Assembly (NCBI GenBank): GCA_036522305.1
Contig: DATDGB010000007.1
Span: forward strand, 18,342 to 82,341
Origin: Candidatus Acidiferrum sp.
GTDB taxonomy: Bacteria; Acidobacteriota; Terriglobia; Acidiferrales; UBA7541
Direction of reading: 5' to 3'
DNA length: 64,000 nt
The notes under the pieces: generated by a model
The model's input: the letters and a program-made list of their open reading frames with translations, nothing else
Database searches by the model: none
What the model was told of the DNA's origin: nothing
Made by a program: the position numbers and the translations under genes
Part shown: one piece after another, positions 18,992 through 26,047 of the stretch
Position numbering within the stretch: position 1 is the first letter of the stretch
How the letters are laid out: each line of letters begins with the position of its first letter

Positions 18992-20227
18992 ATGAAATCC
19001 ACAAGGGTTTTCCTCCTCTCCACCGTGCTACTCGTAGTTTGTCTCGGTGGTCTTTCAGCGTGCCGTCGTCATCCAGCAGTTTCCGAGGGATCCGCCGGCC
19101 CCCGCATCCTGTGGTCCTATAATTCAGGCTCAGACCTCGTCTCCGGAATGGCTCTCTCTCCCAACGGCACCGTCCACTTCGCCGCTGACAATGGCATCTA
19201 CGCTCTCTCGCCCGAAGGCAAATTGCTCTGGAAAGCCCCGCTGCCATCCGGTCCTGTCATCGCAGCCCCAACCATCTCGCCCACCGGCACGCTCTACGCC
19301 GCGAGCCAGTCCGGCAAACTCTTCGCGCTCGACACGTCCGGCAACCTGACTTGGCAATCCGCCGCTACCAAACACAAATTATTCACTCCGCTAGCCCTTG
19401 GAACTGGCGACGCCCTTTACGTCGCCGACGACTTCACCGACATCTTCGCCTTCACCCCGAGCATCGGCACCGACCTCACTTGGAAACAAATGACCTTCAG
19501 TCCCTCCGGCTCCCGCGATGACATCCTCCTCGGCACCAACACCGGCCTCTATGGATACGGCCCCGGCGAGTGGCGCTCCTCTCCCGTGATCGCTGGCGAC
19601 GACATGATCTATCTTGCCCATCAGCAGTGGCTCTACCGCCTCAATCTCCACGGCGACGTTCTCTGGTTCGTTCAATTGCCGAGCAGTCCGCTTGGGTTTC
19701 CCGCCATTGGCGCAGATGGCGTTGTCTACCTCGAAGGCCACGGTCCTCCCGTCCTCTTCGCCATCGGCCCCGAAGGCAAGCAACGCTGGGCCGTTCGCCT
19801 CTCTAACCGCTTGCTCGGCTCTCCAGTAGTCGACAACGCCGGCGTCATTTATTTTTGCGATTCCGATTTCGTCAAAGCCCTCCTGCCCGACAGCCAGAGC
19901 AAATGGTACGTCCAGGCCGAGTGCAACTCCGGCCCGGCCCTAGCCGCCGACGGCACAATTTATCTTGGAATGAACCGCCGTGACCCCGGCCGCGGCCCTC
20001 ACGCCACGTTTTTCGCCGCCTTCACTCCCGACGGCCAGCTCAAATGGAAAATCGAAGTAAACGGCTCAGTCCGCGACGCTCCCGCCATCTCCCCCGACGG
20101 CACCATCTTCTTCACCACCGACAAAGGCTACGTCTACGCCATTTCCGGCGCCGGCTCTCCTCCCATGGACTCCCCCTGGCCGCGCTTCCAACACGACGCC
20201 CAAAACTCCGGCCACTCCCGTTTCTAA
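18992..20227 (+). CDS. PQQ-like beta-propeller repeat protein, probable lipoprotein
   Basis: LSAC lipobox, repeated P.I..DG..Y / G...W blades, C-terminal WPRFQHDAQNSG. Confidence 0.8.
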   Translation: MKSTRVFLLSTVLLVVCLGGLSACRRHPAVSEGSAGPRILWSYNSGSDLVSGMALSPNGTVHFAADNGIYALSPEGKLLWKAPLPSGPVIAAPTISPTGTLYAASQSGKLFALDTSGNLTWQSAATKHKLFTPLALGTGDALYVADDFTDIFAFTPSIGTDLTWKQMTFSPSGSRDDILLGTNTGLYGYGPGEWRSSPVIAGDDMIYLAHQQWLYRLNLHGDVLWFVQLPSSPLGFPAIGADGVVYLEGHGPPVLFAIGPEGKQRWAVRLSNRLLGSPVVDNAGVIYFCDSDFVKALLPDSQSKWYVQAECNSGPALAADGTIYLGMNRRDPGRGPHATFFAAFTPDGQLKWKIEVNGSVRDAPAISPDGTIFFTTDKGYVYAISGAGSPPMDSPWPRFQHDAQNSGHSRF

Positions 20228-20488
20228 CGTCTAACATCTTCGTAACTCCATTAGAATCAATGCTTTTCACGGTCAGCACGTTGGGGGTGGGGCACCGTTC
20301 GCTGGTCTCTTGAGAATGGGGCCTTCTTCCGACCCATGTCCCAGCCTCCAACCCAACCTCAAGTCCCAATTTCCGCCTACGTCCTAGTACATCCGTACTT
20401 CTTAAAATTGAATCGTTTTTGTATCCCCAGTCCTATTGTTCCCTGGGCCTTACCCGGATACACTCTCTCTTCAATCAGGAGGACCGCT

Positions 20489-20821
20489 TTGACTGGTTCC
20501 GAACGCCGCACCACCCAGCGCTTTTCCATGCGGCTGCCGCTCACCGTTCGTTGGACGACGGGAGCCGCGGTTGGAGAAACCAGCACCGAGTCTCGGGATG
20601 TCAGCTCCCGCGGTGTCTATTTCTTCCTTTCCAAGGATGTCCGGGAAGGCTCGCCCGTCGAGATCCTTTTGACGCTTCCCAACGAGATCACTCTGGCCGG
20701 ACCGGTTCGCGTCCGCTGCCTCGGCCGCGTGCAGCGCACTGAGCCACGCGATGAAGGCGCCATCGGCGTGGTTGCCGCTATCGAGCGCTACGAATTCCTT
20801 CGCGGCGACGAAGAGAAGTAG
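20489..20821 (+). CDS. PilZ-domain protein
   Basis: AGGAGG RBS with TTG start; ERRTTQRF (RxxxR) and DVSSRG. Confidence 0.85.
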   Translation: MTGSERRTTQRFSMRLPLTVRWTTGAAVGETSTESRDVSSRGVYFFLSKDVREGSPVEILLTLPNEITLAGPVRVRCLGRVQRTEPRDEGAIGVVAAIERYEFLRGDEEK

Positions 20822-21012
20822 GGAAGTAAAGACGAAATGAAATAAATCGAAGTTGCCGCGCCGAAGTGAACTAAGTTTTTCCGCGGCAGCGCAGCAAAGT
20901 AAAAATTTCAGGAAGGGAAGTCCCCCGCTTCCTGGTTCACAGCCGCCCTTAGAGTTTGAGAATGTTTTTTGACGAGTTCCTTGCTCGCTCACTGCGGAGG
21001 CGGGCAGGATAA

Positions 21013-21058
21013 GCCGGGGTGCCTTGGCCCCTCAGCGAAGCTACCCCGGCACTTTTTT
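21013..21058 (+). terminator. Hairpin with T-tract between convergent PilZ and HNH genes
   Basis: GCCGGGGT..ACCCCGGC then ACTTTTTT. Confidence 0.5.
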
Positions 21059-21080
21059 CTTCCCGGTCTTTTTCAGCCGT

Positions 21081-21802
21081 TCATCGTTCAGAAATTTTCG
21101 AACTAGCACTACCTCTTTGGCTGGGAAGCGCAGGCCGAAGCTTTCCCGCAGCGAGCTGCGCCAGCGTGCCGAGTCGCCCGCTGAGTTCGCCTACGCTCAG
21201 CCGTCCCTCGCGGCACAGCCAGCGGATAAAATCCTCGGCCTGACGTTCGCGCTTCAGTGAGTTACATTCCGCACATGCTGACACCAGGTTGCGGTAACCA
21301 TTGCCCCCTCCCCGCGCACGCGGCACCACATGGTCGACGCACCGCACCATCGGTGTCAGCCGGTGCAAGCAGTAAAAGCACCGCCCGCCATCGCGCGCGT
21401 GGATCGCCTGGCGCAGCGTCCGGGTTTCAAAGAAATCCGCCTTCTCGAGGTGGCCTGCGTCAGGCGGACGCCGAGCGATCTTGCCCGCGCGAACCGAGCG
21501 AATCTCCTCGGCAAGCACACCGTAACCACGTGACCCGCTCGGCTACGTTCGGCCAGCCGCAGCACTCTTTTGGCAACCAGGCGTCGCACCGCTTTGCGTG
21601 CGCCCCAGACGGAAACGCATGCGCCGCGAGCCAGCCACAGAATGGAGAAGCGTAGCTGCTTCTTCCCTTCGAGTCGACTGTGCCGCAGCAAATAAGAATA
21701 CATCGCGCGGTCGAACACAGATAGCCGCAGCCCTGGCACCACCAAATCTTCCATTTGTTTCCACACCTGTACCGCATTGATCTTTTTGTTTTTCATATTC
21801 AT
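21081..21802 (-). CDS. HNH endonuclease with N-terminal HTH-like region, frameshifted near 21510
   Basis: RDGGRCFYC, VDHVVPRARGG, NLVSACAECNSLK; ORFs 21356-21802 and 21081-21518 join if one base is added. Confidence 0.8.
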
Positions 21803-21829
21803 TGTAGTGGCGGGTCTTTAGACCCGTGC
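21803..21829. repeat. GTAG-type REP
   Basis: TGTAGTGGCGGGTCTTTAGACCCGTGC; 26/27 identical to the reverse complement of 42781-42807. Confidence 0.8.
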
Positions 21830-21910
21830 TTTCTGCCTTCGTCCCGGGCAAGAAGTTCCAAGCATTGGTTTTGAAGGGCAATACTTTCAGTGGGGGGAAA
21901 ACGAGCCTAC

Positions 21911-21941
21911 AAAAAGAAAAAGCCCCGGCGAAAACCGGGGC
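21911..21941 (-). terminator. Intrinsic terminator
   Basis: GCCCCGG-TTTTCG-CCGGGGC-TTTTTCTTTTT. Confidence 0.8.
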
Positions 21942-21960
21942 ACACTTCTCTACAGGACAA

Positions 21961-21990
21961 ATTCTACTACAGCAGTAACCGCCTTGTCAA
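21961..21990 (-). promoter_or_regulatory. Near-consensus sigma70 promoter
   Basis: TTGACA-18 nt-TAGAAT. Confidence 0.65.
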
Positions 21991-22231
21991 GAACAAAATT
22001 AGTTCGCCTGTCTTGCCTCATCCCCAGGCCAGCCTCCATCACGGAATCTGCTTTCTGCCTACGTAGTGGCCGTTTTTCCGAAGGGGCCGGATCGGGCTCC
22101 AGGGTGTGCTTTACGGGGCAGATTCCTGGCATTCGATCTGCCAGGATGGCTTCAGAGTGGACAATAGTTCGACTCCTACAAGAGCCCGCGCCGCTGTCTA
22201 GCATCCCCGGCAATTCAGGATTGGAGATCAC

Positions 22232-22717
22232 ATGAATCGAAACTTAAGGCAGCCACTATGGGTGTTGGCACTGGGAATCGCCTTCACCGGGCTTAGCACG
22301 GCTACTCTTCGTGCGGCGGTTCCCGCACAGCAGGACCAGGATCAACATCGCTTTCAGGACCAGGACCATAACGACAATCAACGCGGAGCAAGATGGTCCT
22401 TTCAGCAGGGCTTGCAGGACGGCCGCCACGATCGTCAATATGGCGGCAACCGCAGCGATCACCAGCAACCCAGGGATTCATACGACCTCAACGCCTATCG
22501 CGACGGCTACAAACACGGCTATCGCAATATCCCGACCAGCCAGCAGGAGTATCCCACCCGAGTGATGAATTACTTCGACCAGGGTTTGCAGGACGGCCGT
22601 CGCGATCGTCAATATGGCGGCAACCGCAGCGATCACCAGCAACCCAGGAACTCCAACGACCTTAGCGCCTATCGTGACGGTTACAAACACGGCTTCCGCA
22701 ACATCTCGACCAATTAA
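22232..22717 (+). CDS. Secreted protein with internal duplication
   Basis: GGAG RBS, signal peptide, two QGLQDGRxDRQYGGN..AYRDGYKHG units 174 nt apart. Confidence 0.8.
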   Translation: MNRNLRQPLWVLALGIAFTGLSTATLRAAVPAQQDQDQHRFQDQDHNDNQRGARWSFQQGLQDGRHDRQYGGNRSDHQQPRDSYDLNAYRDGYKHGYRNIPTSQQEYPTRVMNYFDQGLQDGRRDRQYGGNRSDHQQPRNSNDLSAYRDGYKHGFRNISTN

Positions 22718-22788
22718 CCGGCGCGTGGCAAGGAAGAGGAATCCGGAATCTTTCAGACTCCCTTCGATCGAACGAGGAAGCTCTCGCA

Positions 22789-22864
22789 CACTCACAACTC
22801 AAAACAACACGCAGGGTGCCCGCGGTTTGCAGTTTGAACCTGGGTCTTGTGGTTGCCTTCTCTC
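22789..22864 (+). repeat. 76-bp dispersed repeat, copy 1
   Basis: 68/76 identical to 23830-23905. Confidence 0.85.
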
Positions 22865-22985
22865 CCAAGCGGCCCGCCCCAGCCCCACCCCGCGCGCAAA
22901 TACTACTCTTCGGTACAGGAGCGTAACGCGACGTTACGCCCGGCCGTCACAGTAGTAGACGAAAGTCCCTGGGAGGAAAGAAACC

Positions 22986-23231
22986 ATGAAACCGCACTCC
23001 TTCTTAAGAATCGGCTTGGTCTCCGCAATGTTGGTGGGCGCCTTCATCGCCGGGCAACATTACTCGCGCACCGCGGCTGCCCAAAGCCCCCCGAAGTGGG
23101 AATACCAGATTGTTGGTTGCGGCGTCGGCTGCTCCAGCCAAGTCGCACAGATCAACAAGCTGGGCGACGAAGGTTGGGAGGTGGTCACGCTGAACGCCAG
23201 TAATCGAATTCTTCTGAAACGCGCCAAGTAG
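22986..23231 (+). CDS. Small exported protein, DUF4177-like
   Basis: GGAGG RBS; KWEYQIV..INKLGDEGWEVV. Confidence 0.7.
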   Translation: MKPHSFLRIGLVSAMLVGAFIAGQHYSRTAAAQSPPKWEYQIVGCGVGCSSQVAQINKLGDEGWEVVTLNASNRILLKRAK

Positions 23232-23402
23232 CGATTCGTGGGCACGCCTTACACCCACCCCGCCCCCCGTAGACGATGCACAACTTGGCAAGGGGTCGCC
23301 TCTCGAACTGTGCTTTATTGAACAGTCAGGCGTCGTTTGGTTGCTTAGACTTCCCGCACTGAGAACTGTCAAAGGCCTTTGAATCCCTCAGGAGGTTTGC
23401 CG

Positions 23403-23768
23403 ATGAAAATGATGACAAGCACTCGACAAGTAGGCGGCGTTACGATTGTGGACATAAGCGGACGAATTGAACTTGGCGAAGAGAGCGCCGCCGTGCGTGA
23501 CATGGTTTGCGACCTGTTGAGCAAGGGAAATAAGCACATTCTACTGAATCTTGGCGATGTCCATTATATTGACAGCTCGGGCTTGGGTGCGCTGGTTAGT
23601 TCCTTCGCGAGCGCGCGGAAGCAGGGGGGAGAACTGAAACTTCTCAACCTCACGGATAAGGTCACAGACCTGATGCAAATTACAAGGCTGTATACTGTCT
23701 TCGACATCATGGACGACGAGGCCGTGGCCGTTAAGTCTTTCGTTCAATCGGCAGCGGCAACCGGATGA
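23403..23768 (+). CDS. STAS-domain anti-anti-sigma factor
   Basis: AGGAGG RBS; YIDSSGLGALV, GGELKLLNL. Confidence 0.9.
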   Translation: MKMMTSTRQVGGVTIVDISGRIELGEESAAVRDMVCDLLSKGNKHILLNLGDVHYIDSSGLGALVSSFASARKQGGELKLLNLTDKVTDLMQITRLYTVFDIMDDEAVAVKSFVQSAAATG

Positions 23769-23829
23769 CCGGGCGGAGGCAAGTCCCGACGTTCAGACGT
23801 TCGGACGATCTTTGCATTGCCAGTCTGCG

Positions 23830-23905
23830 CACTCACAACTCAAAACAACACAGAGGCTGCCCCAGGTTCGCAGTTTGAACCTGCGTCTTGCGGTTGCCTT
23901 CTCTC
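23830..23905 (+). repeat. 76-bp dispersed repeat, copy 2
   Basis: Core CCCAGGTTCGCAGTTTGAACCTG; matches copy 1. Confidence 0.85.
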
Positions 23906-24434
23906 TCACGCTTCCACGTTCCCGGTGGGGTCTTTGCCGTTCCTTCGCTCCAATTTCTACTTTCTGATTTCTACTTTCTAGTTTTCCTGTGGGAGATGCT
24001 GTGGCTCGTCATCAAGTGCGCTACACCGCCAGCGCTGGACGCCACAGACTAATCGTCCGCGGCTGGTTAGAGCCTGCCTCCTCGCCAAGCCCGGCATGTT
24101 GGGCACCCGGAAGGTCGCGACAGGATAACTGTGAGAAAACGTCCTGTCTGTCCCCGCTCCCCCTCTCCCGCTAAAGGGGGCACCACCCGCCCCCAGCGTC
24201 GATCAAATTAAGTTAGGCTAAAATGAAGTAAATATCTGTTGGATTGTTACTTCCTACACTTGACTTCCATGAAAAAAAAGAGCGTAGTCTAGTTGCCGTA
24301 AGCGGGATGCGCCCGTGCATCGAACACGAACGCACCCCTAAGCAATCGGGCCAAAAACCAAGGAGGCCCAAGTGCCCTCTTGCGATTCTACTTCACCCCG
24401 CACTTCCCGCACTCGGTCAAAAGGAGACAATAAA

Positions 24435-24995
24435 ATGTCGCTCACAAAAAGGTTGCTCTCTGCAACCTTCCTCGGAAGTATTGCTTTGTTTCTAGCGTTC
24501 ACACCGACAAGGGTAGTGCAAGGACGCTCGGCTCCGCCCCAACAGGCAGTCGATACCCACATGCACGCCCCGGCAAATATCATCGATGGAAGCGTCCACC
24601 CCGAAATGATTCAAGATCAGGTGGCATTCCGCCTCTTCTTCCTGGCAGCGGCAACCGGGTCAAACCCATCGCCGCAGGACAAGGAGCGTCAACGTGCAAT
24701 GCTGTCCCCGGCCCGGCTCAGTGAGGAGGAGTTGGCAATCTCAAGCACGGCTCTCGCGAACTACCAGGGGCAATACGAAGCAGTCGTTCAGAGGTTTAAC
24801 GACGCGGTTGCATCAGCGGGATCACCCGAACAACTTCCCGATGGCAAACAGTTGGTTGCAGAACTCGATGCACTAGCACTGGCAGTGAAAACAAAACTTG
24901 AGTCCTCCATATCGGGAGCCAGCTCTCTCCGCTTGTATGCGCATGTACAGGGTGAGAAGTCAAAAATGCGGGTCACGGCTGAGCAGTCAAATTAA
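24435..24995 (+). CDS. Secreted hypothetical protein
   Basis: AAGGAG RBS, signal-like N-terminus, predicted helical body. Confidence 0.7.
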   Translation: MSLTKRLLSATFLGSIALFLAFTPTRVVQGRSAPPQQAVDTHMHAPANIIDGSVHPEMIQDQVAFRLFFLAAATGSNPSPQDKERQRAMLSPARLSEEELAISSTALANYQGQYEAVVQRFNDAVASAGSPEQLPDGKQLVAELDALALAVKTKLESSISGASSLRLYAHVQGEKSKMRVTAEQSN

Positions 24996-25015
24996 AGAGC
25001 AAGGAGAACAGATCA

Positions 25016-25719
25016 ATGAAATTGAAACTTATATTTGCATTCGTTTTCGTGTGCTGGCTTTGCTTTCCGGGAACCGCTGGAGCGCAACAGGGCTATTGCT
25101 TCAACTCGAACTTCAGCTCCTACACCAATGATAGCATCGGCAACGACGCTGCCAGCATCATCCAAACGGTTCAAGTAAGCGGATACATAACGCTGAACAA
25201 TCCGGCTGCATGGGGAGGACCCAATACAGGATGGATATACCCTTGCACCAGTCAGAACAATCAGATGCAAAGTAGTACGCACACTTACAGCATCCAAAAC
25301 ATCGTGGGTTCGACTGGTGGTAATTACAGTCAGGGACCGACTCCGGCACTCAACTACAACACATATTCAATTACGATAACAGCTCCGGCCACGCCGGGAA
25401 TAGAATATAGCATTCAGACGAACGACCAAGTGGTCTGCATAACCGCAGGGCCGATCTTTGCTGGGCCGCCCGGGGTGGTACGATTCGTATAGCGGTAGCT
25501 AATTATCTCTATCAAAGCACGTCTTTTGGCATCTGCACATACAAACTGTATTGCACTCTTGGCACGGCTACGTGTGGCTTTCCAACGGTGGCAACGCCCA
25601 CGCCATGCCCGACAAATTACTTCGTGCAATACTCTCTCGTGTACAGAAGCGGAGTAAACTCAACCTGTTTTCCGGTAAGTATTGGACGCTTTTCGCTGAT
25701 ACCAGTTCCTAGTGCCTAA
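25016..25719 (+). CDS. Secreted Cys/Thr/Tyr-rich protein, probable frameshift at G4 run 25472-25475
   Basis: AAGGAG RBS, signal peptide; the -1 frame continues TIRIAVANY..CTYKLYC..TCGFP..CPTN..TCFP to TAA 25719. Confidence 0.6.
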
Positions 25720-25742
25720 GGGAACATTAAAGGAGGAGGACG

Positions 25743-25964
25743 ATGATGCAAACTGGAGGCAAGTTCTTGTCTGTTTTAGCTCTGTTGCTCATCGTCCTCG
25801 CCTTTGTTCTCAAGGCCGTGATCCCTCAGACATATCGCCTCGGCATCGGAGCCTACTTCTACCGCCTGGATTCGACTGCATTTTGGGTGTTAGTAATGGC
25901 GGGCCTTATCCTTGGCGTGATCGTGGCACTCAAGATTGTTGGCTATTGGCCCGCCAAAGCGTAA
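25743..25964 (+). CDS. Small two-TM membrane protein
   Basis: AAGGAGGAGG RBS, two hydrophobic segments. Confidence 0.65.
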   Translation: MMQTGGKFLSVLALLLIVLAFVLKAVIPQTYRLGIGAYFYRLDSTAFWVLVMAGLILGVIVALKIVGYWPAKA

Positions 25965-26012
25965 AGGGCCAGGAAGCCATCCTCCCCTATCTCCTTCAAA
26001 AAGGAGGAAGCC

Positions 26013-26047
26013 GGGTGCCCAAGGTTCGTTGTTGGAACCTGGGTCTT
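26013..26047 (+). repeat. Core copy of the GGGTGCCC-AGGTTCG..GAACCTGGG repeat
   Basis: GGGTGCCCAAGGTTCGTTGTTGGAACCTGGGTCTT. Confidence 0.7.

Follow-up and report, generated by a model that had tools for sequence, protein, structure and literature searches.

Results

A promoter closed by a predicted terminator precedes a split HNH gene

The window analysed in this study is a stretch of 64,000 nucleotides from Candidatus Acidiferrum sp., which carries on its minus strand an 80-nt unit (21911-21990) of promoter, purine-rich box, hairpin and T-tract, followed by a gene for a winged-helix (wHTH) HNH nuclease that is split into two ORFs (21356-21802 and 21081-21518). In the direction of transcription, the locus comprises the following features:

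21985..21990, minus strand: -35 hexamer TTGACA, found by consensus scan and aligned with TTGACA/TTAACA in paralogous units
21961..21966, minus strand: -10 hexamer TAGAAT, found by consensus scan and aligned with the extended -10 elements TGnGGTACACT and TGTGATAAT in 26 related units
21941..21953, minus strand: initial-transcribed box GTAGAGAAGTGTG, purine-rich and conserved in alignments of 9 and 26 units
21922..21941, minus strand: terminator hairpin GCCCCGG-TTTTCG-CCGGGGC, eight pairs of which seven are GC, loop of 4, with covariation in 26 copies
21911..21921, minus strand: T-tract TTTTTCTTTTT of the predicted intrinsic terminator, invariant in the unit alignments
21803..21825, minus strand: REP-like dispersed repeat GGGTCTAAAGACCCGCCACTACA, abutting the start codon at the expected ribosome-binding site
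21509..21802, minus strand: N-terminal winged-helix part of the gene (ORF 21356-21802), readable up to the frameshift
21509..21511, minus strand: 1-nt deletion TTGCC^GAGGAG, located by comparing the frames with the intact paralog (...VRVPEEIRAAG...)
21081..21508, minus strand: C-terminal HNH nuclease part (Pfam HNH_5, HNH), in the +1 frame relative to the N-terminal part

The promoter agrees with the consensus at 11 of 12 positions with a spacer of 18 nt, and according to the consensus scan it is the sole promoter-like site on the minus strand of 20500-22800, a region that holds two such sites on both strands together against 0.6 expected. Between the terminator and the ATG of the HNH gene at 21802, about 110 nt from the end of the T-tract, the scan found no further promoter-like site. 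Transcription likely starts at the A that follows the GT of the box, giving a 5' leader of about 10 nt, and with the RNA end predicted in the T-tract the default RNA would be approximately 38-42 nt long. The GC-rich stem-loop and the U-tract by which intrinsic terminators are recognised are both present on the transcribed strand, and the unit RNA folds with -21.2 kcal/mol (z = -4.8 against shuffles), whereby the AGAGAAG of the box is predicted to pair with the U-tract CUUUUUCU. A scan of 20000-23500 against Rfam at E <= 1 gave zero matches, the tRNA/tmRNA scan showed nothing near the unit, and there are no tandem repeats in 20000-23500.

An initial annotation, made from the letters of the window alone, had already described this layout, and its description is confirmed: the TTGACA-18-TAGAAT promoter is present on the minus strand, the roughly 14 unpaired nucleotides correspond to GTAGAGAAGTGTG at 21953-21941, and both the GC hairpin with its T-tract and the distance of about 110 nt to the HNH gene were found, with a stem of eight pairs (seven GC).

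The HNH gene of the window is a decayed member of a very large family

Because of the frameshift and the REP-like repeat in place of a ribosome-binding site, the window copy is a pseudogene. Its 1-nt deletion near 21510, which the initial annotation had implied by speaking of a repaired protein, lies outside any homopolymer and upstream of the HNH domain. The reading frame opens with the ATG at 21802, the family-typical start MKNKK corresponding to the second ATG at 21796, and the N-terminal part is 50-55% identical to an intact paralog of 237 aa on contig C54 (P0001). In the C-terminal frame the HNH motifs are unbroken (CFYC ... DH ... N ... CAECN), as had been annotated for CxxC/DH/N/CxxCN, and Pfam identifies HNH_5 (3e-09, 37.1 bits, cut-off 27.5) and HNH (8.5e-08, 32.7 bits, cut-off 21.4). 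Matches to NCBIfam are confined to the HNH stretch of IscB and Cas9d and lie far under the family cut-offs.

Intact relatives carry AGGA-type ribosome-binding sites at the position taken by the REP-like repeat in the window. A search with its 22-mer (up to 3 mismatches) revealed dozens of copies in the genome, mostly unrelated to HNH genes, and the GGGTCTAAAGACCCGCCACTACA block before the ATG was consequently rejected as a part of the module, being a genome-wide REP-like repeat. The repeat has the form (A/C)GGGTCT(A/G)AAGACCCGCCACTACA, is usually intergenic (e.g., C7:61126, C7:87991, C10:19993 and C100:147600) and may equal the palindromic repeat at 22232-26047 of the window.

A search with the intact paralog gave over 3,600 relatives at E <= 0.001, which their sources name just 'HNH endonuclease' or 'McrA'. 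C143, C146, D158, H159, N173, C178, C181 and N182 are invariant in 42 homologs, and the protein thus displays the CxxC ... DH ... N ... CxxC arrangement (beta-beta-alpha-metal motif) of the HNH superfamily. In the AlphaFold model, residues 1-100 reach a pLDDT of about 85 and the HNH half is poorly modelled; the best fold matches of the N-terminal domain are winged helices of CodY, MarR and ArsR, with weak E-values and a probability of 1.0. The family is distributed patchily, being present in 15 of the 101 genomes from the taxonomic family, and it is multi-copy, with at most 11 copies per genome. Four copies occur in the window's genome, three of them decayed: besides the window copy, the one on C59 has a frameshift at another place and a CxxC changed to CxxF, and the one on C45 is truncated. 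A phage origin of the family was considered and rejected: 50,697 phage records contained no full-length relative, the only match in INPHARED being to the HNH domain at 25% coverage, and IMG/VR yielded no relatives with the patterns used.

The unit is conserved and its hairpin covaries

A covariance model (R1) was built from an alignment (A1) of nine units. In the 4.3-Mb genome it recovers five matches at 63-72 bits, the next best scoring 22 bits; all four copies in the window's genome that can be interpreted lie upstream of wHTH-HNH paralogs, and the fifth lies 220 nt from a contig end. Covariation was assessed on 26 unit copies from 31 genomes of the genus, where 88% of cells in the hairpin are paired versus 40-48% in slid controls, four of nine hairpin pairs show compensatory double changes, and none of 500 shuffles reached the observed covariation score.

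Outside the stem, the box is the most conserved block, with the pattern G.AGA.A..T..G invariant in the nine units and GTAGA(A/G)AA(G/C)T(G/A) nearly invariant in the 26 copies. Its T-A step falls at the expected transcription start position, and the promoter spacer is conserved within subfamilies, with a TA(G/A)A-type hexamer at about -1 to +5. The GTAGA box could perhaps simply be the A-tract of the terminator together with start-site context. Allowing up to 3 mismatches, the HNH mRNA region holds no complement of the 13-nt tail, and genome-wide such complements occur just on the opposite strands of the units themselves.

Related genomes place the unit before HNH genes and phage-like operons

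Across the genus (30-31 genomes) the model found 31 matches, 13 upstream of wHTH-HNH genes, 11 upstream of a phage-like operon with a large terminase and one before an aldo-keto reductase gene at a gap of about 55 nt, the remainder being located at contig ends or before genes of unknown type. The terminase operon follows the unit in at least 10 genomes of the genus, and in G130 it is preceded by two units in tandem. Its gene for the large terminase (PHROG 979, 2.5e-34; Pfam Terminase_3) comes after those for a protein of 123 aa, a Cys-rich protein of 70-90 aa and a basic protein of 286 aa, and before those for a protein of 320 aa and an SLT transglycosylase. Genes of this operon are absent from the window's genome, which is 89% complete. 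None of the conclusions drawn here depends on the unpublished genome of one relative, G002.

The phage-like cluster itself spans about 6 kb in 10 of 30 sister genomes (reference L067, G112:C8, 5223-11217; orthologs in G101, G103, G104, G106, G108, G113, G118, G126 and G130) and has genes for a GYD-domain protein and a Cro/CI-type HTH protein as neighbours. No capsid, portal or tail genes were recognisable within the 18 kb that were read; a defective prophage, a satellite and a GTA-like remnant are possible identities of the cluster. Small Cys-rich proteins are encoded downstream of units at several loci (L072, G108:C11:207218; L067, 5887-6099; L069; L070) and have a zinc-ribbon-like C...C...(F/L)C..H pattern in common; by loose analogy with small zinc-finger phage activators, they are candidates for late-gene regulators.

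A second genus (G049, G001 and G030) has a diverged unit, in which CTTGTCAAG is followed after about 100 nt by GCGAATAATAACC-N9-TGnTATAAT; a leader rich in purines comes next, and a single or double hairpin/T-tract terminator closes the unit. Pattern search in this genus gave 20 matches: 16 stand directly before HNH genes, two before a portal gene (PHROG 2662, 1.7e-17), one before a zinc-finger primase-like gene with an AAA_25 helicase gene, and one before lipA. The two unassigned ORFs after the portal gene (368 and 320 aa) we take to be head genes. Both the portal and the primase operons have two tandem terminators, with a gap of only 10-20 nt from the last T-tract to the ATG; in G120, about 45 nt separate the T-tract from the ATG of the HNH gene. 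In homologs from G001 and G030, the homologous promoter runs directly into the ORF without a terminator. More distant homologs retain the unit or its architecture alone, as in one case where promoter, 7 nt, a 12-bp hairpin and T-tract are kept and the box is absent. The tight spacing of T-tract and ATG and the terminator-less homologs show the promoter to be that of the downstream gene, the terminator being a leader element of this gene.

The cassette was gained, lost and moved within the genus

Among sister genomes, G108 and G112 share the site of the HNH gene, which follows a PilZ-like gene and a conserved element of about 88 nt. At this site the gene is reduced to a remnant in G122 and absent in G103, G102, G115 and G104, with G103 having a copy 3 kb away; because of this pattern of present, remnant, absent and displaced genes, we conclude that the cassette is gained, lost and moved within the genus. 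Clean boundaries of a mobile element were looked for and rejected: filled sites (G108, G112 and the window) and empty sites (G103, G102, G115 and G104) differ only by a replaced segment, and target duplications or terminal repeats are lacking.

The 88-nt intergenic element lies at 20972-21059 of the window (plus strand), after the PilZ-like gene (20336-20821) and just past the HNH stop. It is 84-94% identical across genomes of the genus, versus about 77-84% for the neighbouring gene, and its fold consists of two hairpins, with a T-tract behind the second. No Rfam family matches it, and it is too invariant to show covariation; we regard it as a candidate 3'-UTR element or small RNA.

Further observations concern the surroundings of other cassettes. 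Two units 0.8 kb apart flank an NTF2/SnoaL-like gene on the opposite strand, upstream of the HNH gene of G103:C23 (L051, 4877-5771), and both end at the same point (GGGGTGTTT), which suggests recombination or insertion at the unit. Downstream of the HNH pseudogene on C59 (L002, G000:C59, 1-450), genes resembling an AbrB/SpoVT-type antitoxin and a PIN (VapC-like) toxin were recognised by eye, and a ParE/RelE-like pair lies between unit and HNH gene on G103:C12, so toxin-antitoxin pairs seem to gather around the cassettes.

Search for a regulator

Antiterminators of the Q family (PF06530 and PF03589) gave no match in G000, G112, G108, G001 and G049, and neither did AlpA (PF05930) in these five genomes. 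The window's genome encodes the housekeeping NusG only and no extra NusG paralog; such paralogs occur in relatives, but not beside the units. Upstream of the portal-operon unit we found HipA-like, DUF3037 and transposase genes, and since these are not regulators, the possibility of a regulator encoded there was rejected.

Discussion

Proposed mechanism and alternatives

Our preferred reading, which we hold with modest confidence, is a promoter of the phage-late type with a promoter-proximal terminator that is read through only by antitermination, comparable to lambda PR'-tR' with Q or to P. aeruginosa alpB with AlpA, because the cassette heads packaging, head and replication operons, because terminators sometimes occur there in tandem, and because no room is then left for a further promoter. 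The near-consensus sigma-70 promoter would fire, RNA polymerase would run into a strong intrinsic terminator after roughly 10 nt of transcript and by default make just a hairpin RNA of about 40 nt, a by-product, and the wHTH-HNH nuclease gene would be expressed only upon read-through. Such an antitermination-controlled leader would be common to the phage-like operons and the dispersed HNH genes, with the nearly invariant GTAGARAAGTG box and the conserved promoter spacer as candidate loading or pause signals. The elements of the unit, their conservation and covariation, the linkage to HNH genes and the presence before phage-like operons can be read directly from the genomes, and we infer termination, regulated read-through and a trans-acting factor. 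With the phage-like operon being absent from the window's genome, the cassettes there may be without a partner, and this may be why the HNH copies are decaying. The units before the aldo-keto reductase gene and lipA could represent a promiscuous 'mobile promoter' rather than a regulon. Where the initial annotation had left the choice between a discrete tiny RNA and an attenuator, the attenuator fits best, in the form of antitermination, and a discrete functional RNA is less favoured.

We consider it rather unlikely that the unit is a stand-alone gene for a tiny sRNA, whose hairpin RNA of about 40 nt acts in trans (e.g., with Hfq or as a protein sponge) while the downstream genes are expressed separately. 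A strong promoter joined to an efficient terminator is how an sRNA gene is built, the 5' box hardly varies among the 26 copies, a very stable, fully paired hairpin is predicted for the RNA, and the units in the window's genome are still intact where three of the four downstream HNH genes are dead; moreover, StxS is an example of a terminated RNA that gained a function (PMC7547250). However, beyond the opposite strands of the units themselves the genome offers no complementary target, and no Rfam family is matched; in relatives, tandem double terminators abut start codons, some homologs have the promoter without the terminator, and one lineage has the architecture without the box, which argues for a role in cis. 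A stand-alone sRNA would be compatible with the by-product idea.

The sequence-specific conservation of box and promoter spacer exceeds the needs of a plain terminator, and two strong tandem terminators before head and replication operons would leave very little expression unaided. Both points speak against a passive damper or insulator, i.e., a leaky terminator that keeps toxic nuclease or phage genes low without any regulator, and we judge this explanation unlikely, even though A-tract, hairpin and U-tract are symmetric, no antiterminator gene was found in the genomes searched, and the cassette moves with single genes into many contexts. As a variant, the hairpin may stabilise the 5' end of the read-through mRNA and, as a bidirectional terminator, block antisense transcription.

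An element acting at the DNA level, that is a palindromic recognition, cleavage or recombination site (a homing target or cos/pac-like site) used by the wHTH-HNH protein or by the phage-like packaging machinery, with only secondary likeness to a promoter, appears improbable. It would agree with the position of the unit at the far end of an HNH segment of about 1.4 kb that occupies different loci in G108 and G103, with the duplicated unit flanking an inserted gene in G103, and with the unit preceding the terminase operon, where cos/pac sites often lie; HNH proteins are described as acting with terminases in cos phages (PMC3592412). Yet portal/head operons, primase/helicase operons and housekeeping genes have the unit in front of them as well, the spacing of -35 and -10 is canonical, the U-tract occurs on one strand only, and filled and empty sites do not compare as clean insertions.

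Least supported among the alternatives, and in our estimation very improbable, is a short RNA dedicated to the HNH nuclease, whether as its guide, its antitoxin or its cofactor, since the tight linkage of the unit to HNH genes in the window's genome and the similarity of the HNH domain to those of IscB and Cas9d above all others are set against a conserved rather than variable 5' segment, an HNH mRNA without a complement, units before non-HNH genes, and the lack of RuvC, PLMP and Nop domains, omega-RNA-like structure and repeat arrays. The initial annotation had proposed a nuclease-specific guide or antitoxin RNA, and this proposal does not stand up to the near-invariance of the 5' box and the missing complement in the HNH mRNA. 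Co-occurrence of unit and HNH genes, which the annotation had suggested checking, is borne out by all four interpretable copies in the window's genome and by many relatives; variation of the 5' segment is not, the segment being nearly invariant (GTAGA[A/G]AA[G/C]T[G/A]), and in relatives the unit also occurs independently of HNH genes, an outcome that the annotation had named as refuting its proposal, before terminase, portal/head and primase/helicase operons and the aldo-keto reductase gene. Its view that the protein does not look like IscB or TasH, no RuvC or Nop motifs being visible, agrees with our finding of a winged helix plus HNH domain with scores below the cut-offs.

Returning to antitermination, a wider form of this reading is doubtful, namely that the unit marks the regulon of an undescribed processive antitermination system, in which no Q, N-type, AlpA or specialised NusG factor could be recognised, and that this system co-switches the dispersed wHTH-HNH genes and a small, genus-wide packaging cluster (terminase, SLT). 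The HNH proteins would then belong to a domesticated phage-like element, either as its detached nuclease arm or as an arm for defence or suicide that senses phages, and the abundant, blunt hairpin RNA of about 40 nt may itself function. If antitermination does apply, a very large and unstudied family of winged-helix HNH nucleases would be silenced by a promoter-proximal terminator and turned on along with phage-like operons, through a factor outside Q, AlpA and extra NusG paralogs. Late control in the style of lambda would then reach a further bacterial lineage and genes dispersed on the chromosome. The covariance model R1 provides a simple sequence handle for finding the regulon and the missing regulator. 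The window itself holds only a decaying copy, and for it the guide-RNA idea fails.

Comparison with known systems

The best named matches of the HNH domain are the HNH stretches of IscB and Cas9d, and a small RNA (predicted) is encoded beside the gene, as in the OMEGA and TIGR-Tas systems. In contrast to IscB and IshB, the protein has no PLMP, RuvC or bridge-helix and begins with a winged helix, and the match to the IscB family NF040563 covers the HNH stretch only (45.8 bits versus a cut-off of 175). Unlike OMEGA systems, the locus has no long structured omega-RNA (HEARO-like), the only RNA-like unit being about 40 nt long with a conserved 5' end, and it differs from TIGR-Tas (TasH) in that Pfam detects no Nop domain and 20000-23500 contains no tandem guide array. 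From type I toxin-antitoxin systems it is set apart by a unit RNA without complementarity to the HNH mRNA.

Packaging-associated HNH endonucleases of phages are encoded beside cos/terminase genes (PMC3592412). The window's protein likewise is an HNH nuclease with two CxxC pairs, and in relatives its control cassette is common to a terminase-containing operon. It differs in that a terminase gene is neither adjacent nor present elsewhere in the window's genome, in having an N-terminal winged helix instead of zinc-ribbon extras, and in that no full-length relative was found in the phage records or viral contigs searched.

Transcription from the lambdoid promoter PR' starts constitutively and likewise ends constitutively at tR', yielding a short RNA by-product until Q brings about read-through (PMC7547250). 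In the window, too, a strong, seemingly constitutive promoter is followed almost immediately by a predicted intrinsic terminator, with a short RNA as the expected default product; in silico, this terminator lies between the promoter and the first gene, no other promoter intervening, and in relatives the units stand before genes of phage structure and packaging, in terminase, portal and SLT operons. The elements for Q binding and pausing in lambda lie in the promoter spacer and the first transcribed bases. The corresponding parts of the unit, spacer and first transcribed bases, are conserved and are candidates for such signals. The differences from the lambdoid system are the length of the RNA (about 40 nt versus 194-258 nt), the lack of a Q homolog in the five genomes searched, the occurrence of the unit before single, dispersed chromosomal HNH genes, and, in the window's genome, the restriction to HNH genes with no late genes behind the unit.

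AlpA of Pseudomonas aeruginosa binds between -35 and -10, upon which polymerase bypasses one or two terminators upstream of its targets (PMC7969949). The arrangement at alpBCDE and PA0807 resembles ours in the one or two intrinsic terminators between promoter and first gene and in the common control of several unlinked loci (PMC7969949), which for our unit is a proposal. It differs in that the five genomes encode no AlpA-family protein and in that the targets here are nuclease genes together with phage-like head, packaging and replication operons.

Reused or mobile promoters, finally, are highly similar promoter units before non-homologous genes, both within and between genomes (PMC3575422). 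A similar unit before non-homologous genes is found here as well, but the reused unit always brings along a terminator as well as a conserved leader box, and it occurs predominantly at genes that are mobile or phage-like. Overall, what we propose is a known kind of control in a new variant, attached to an unstudied nuclease family.
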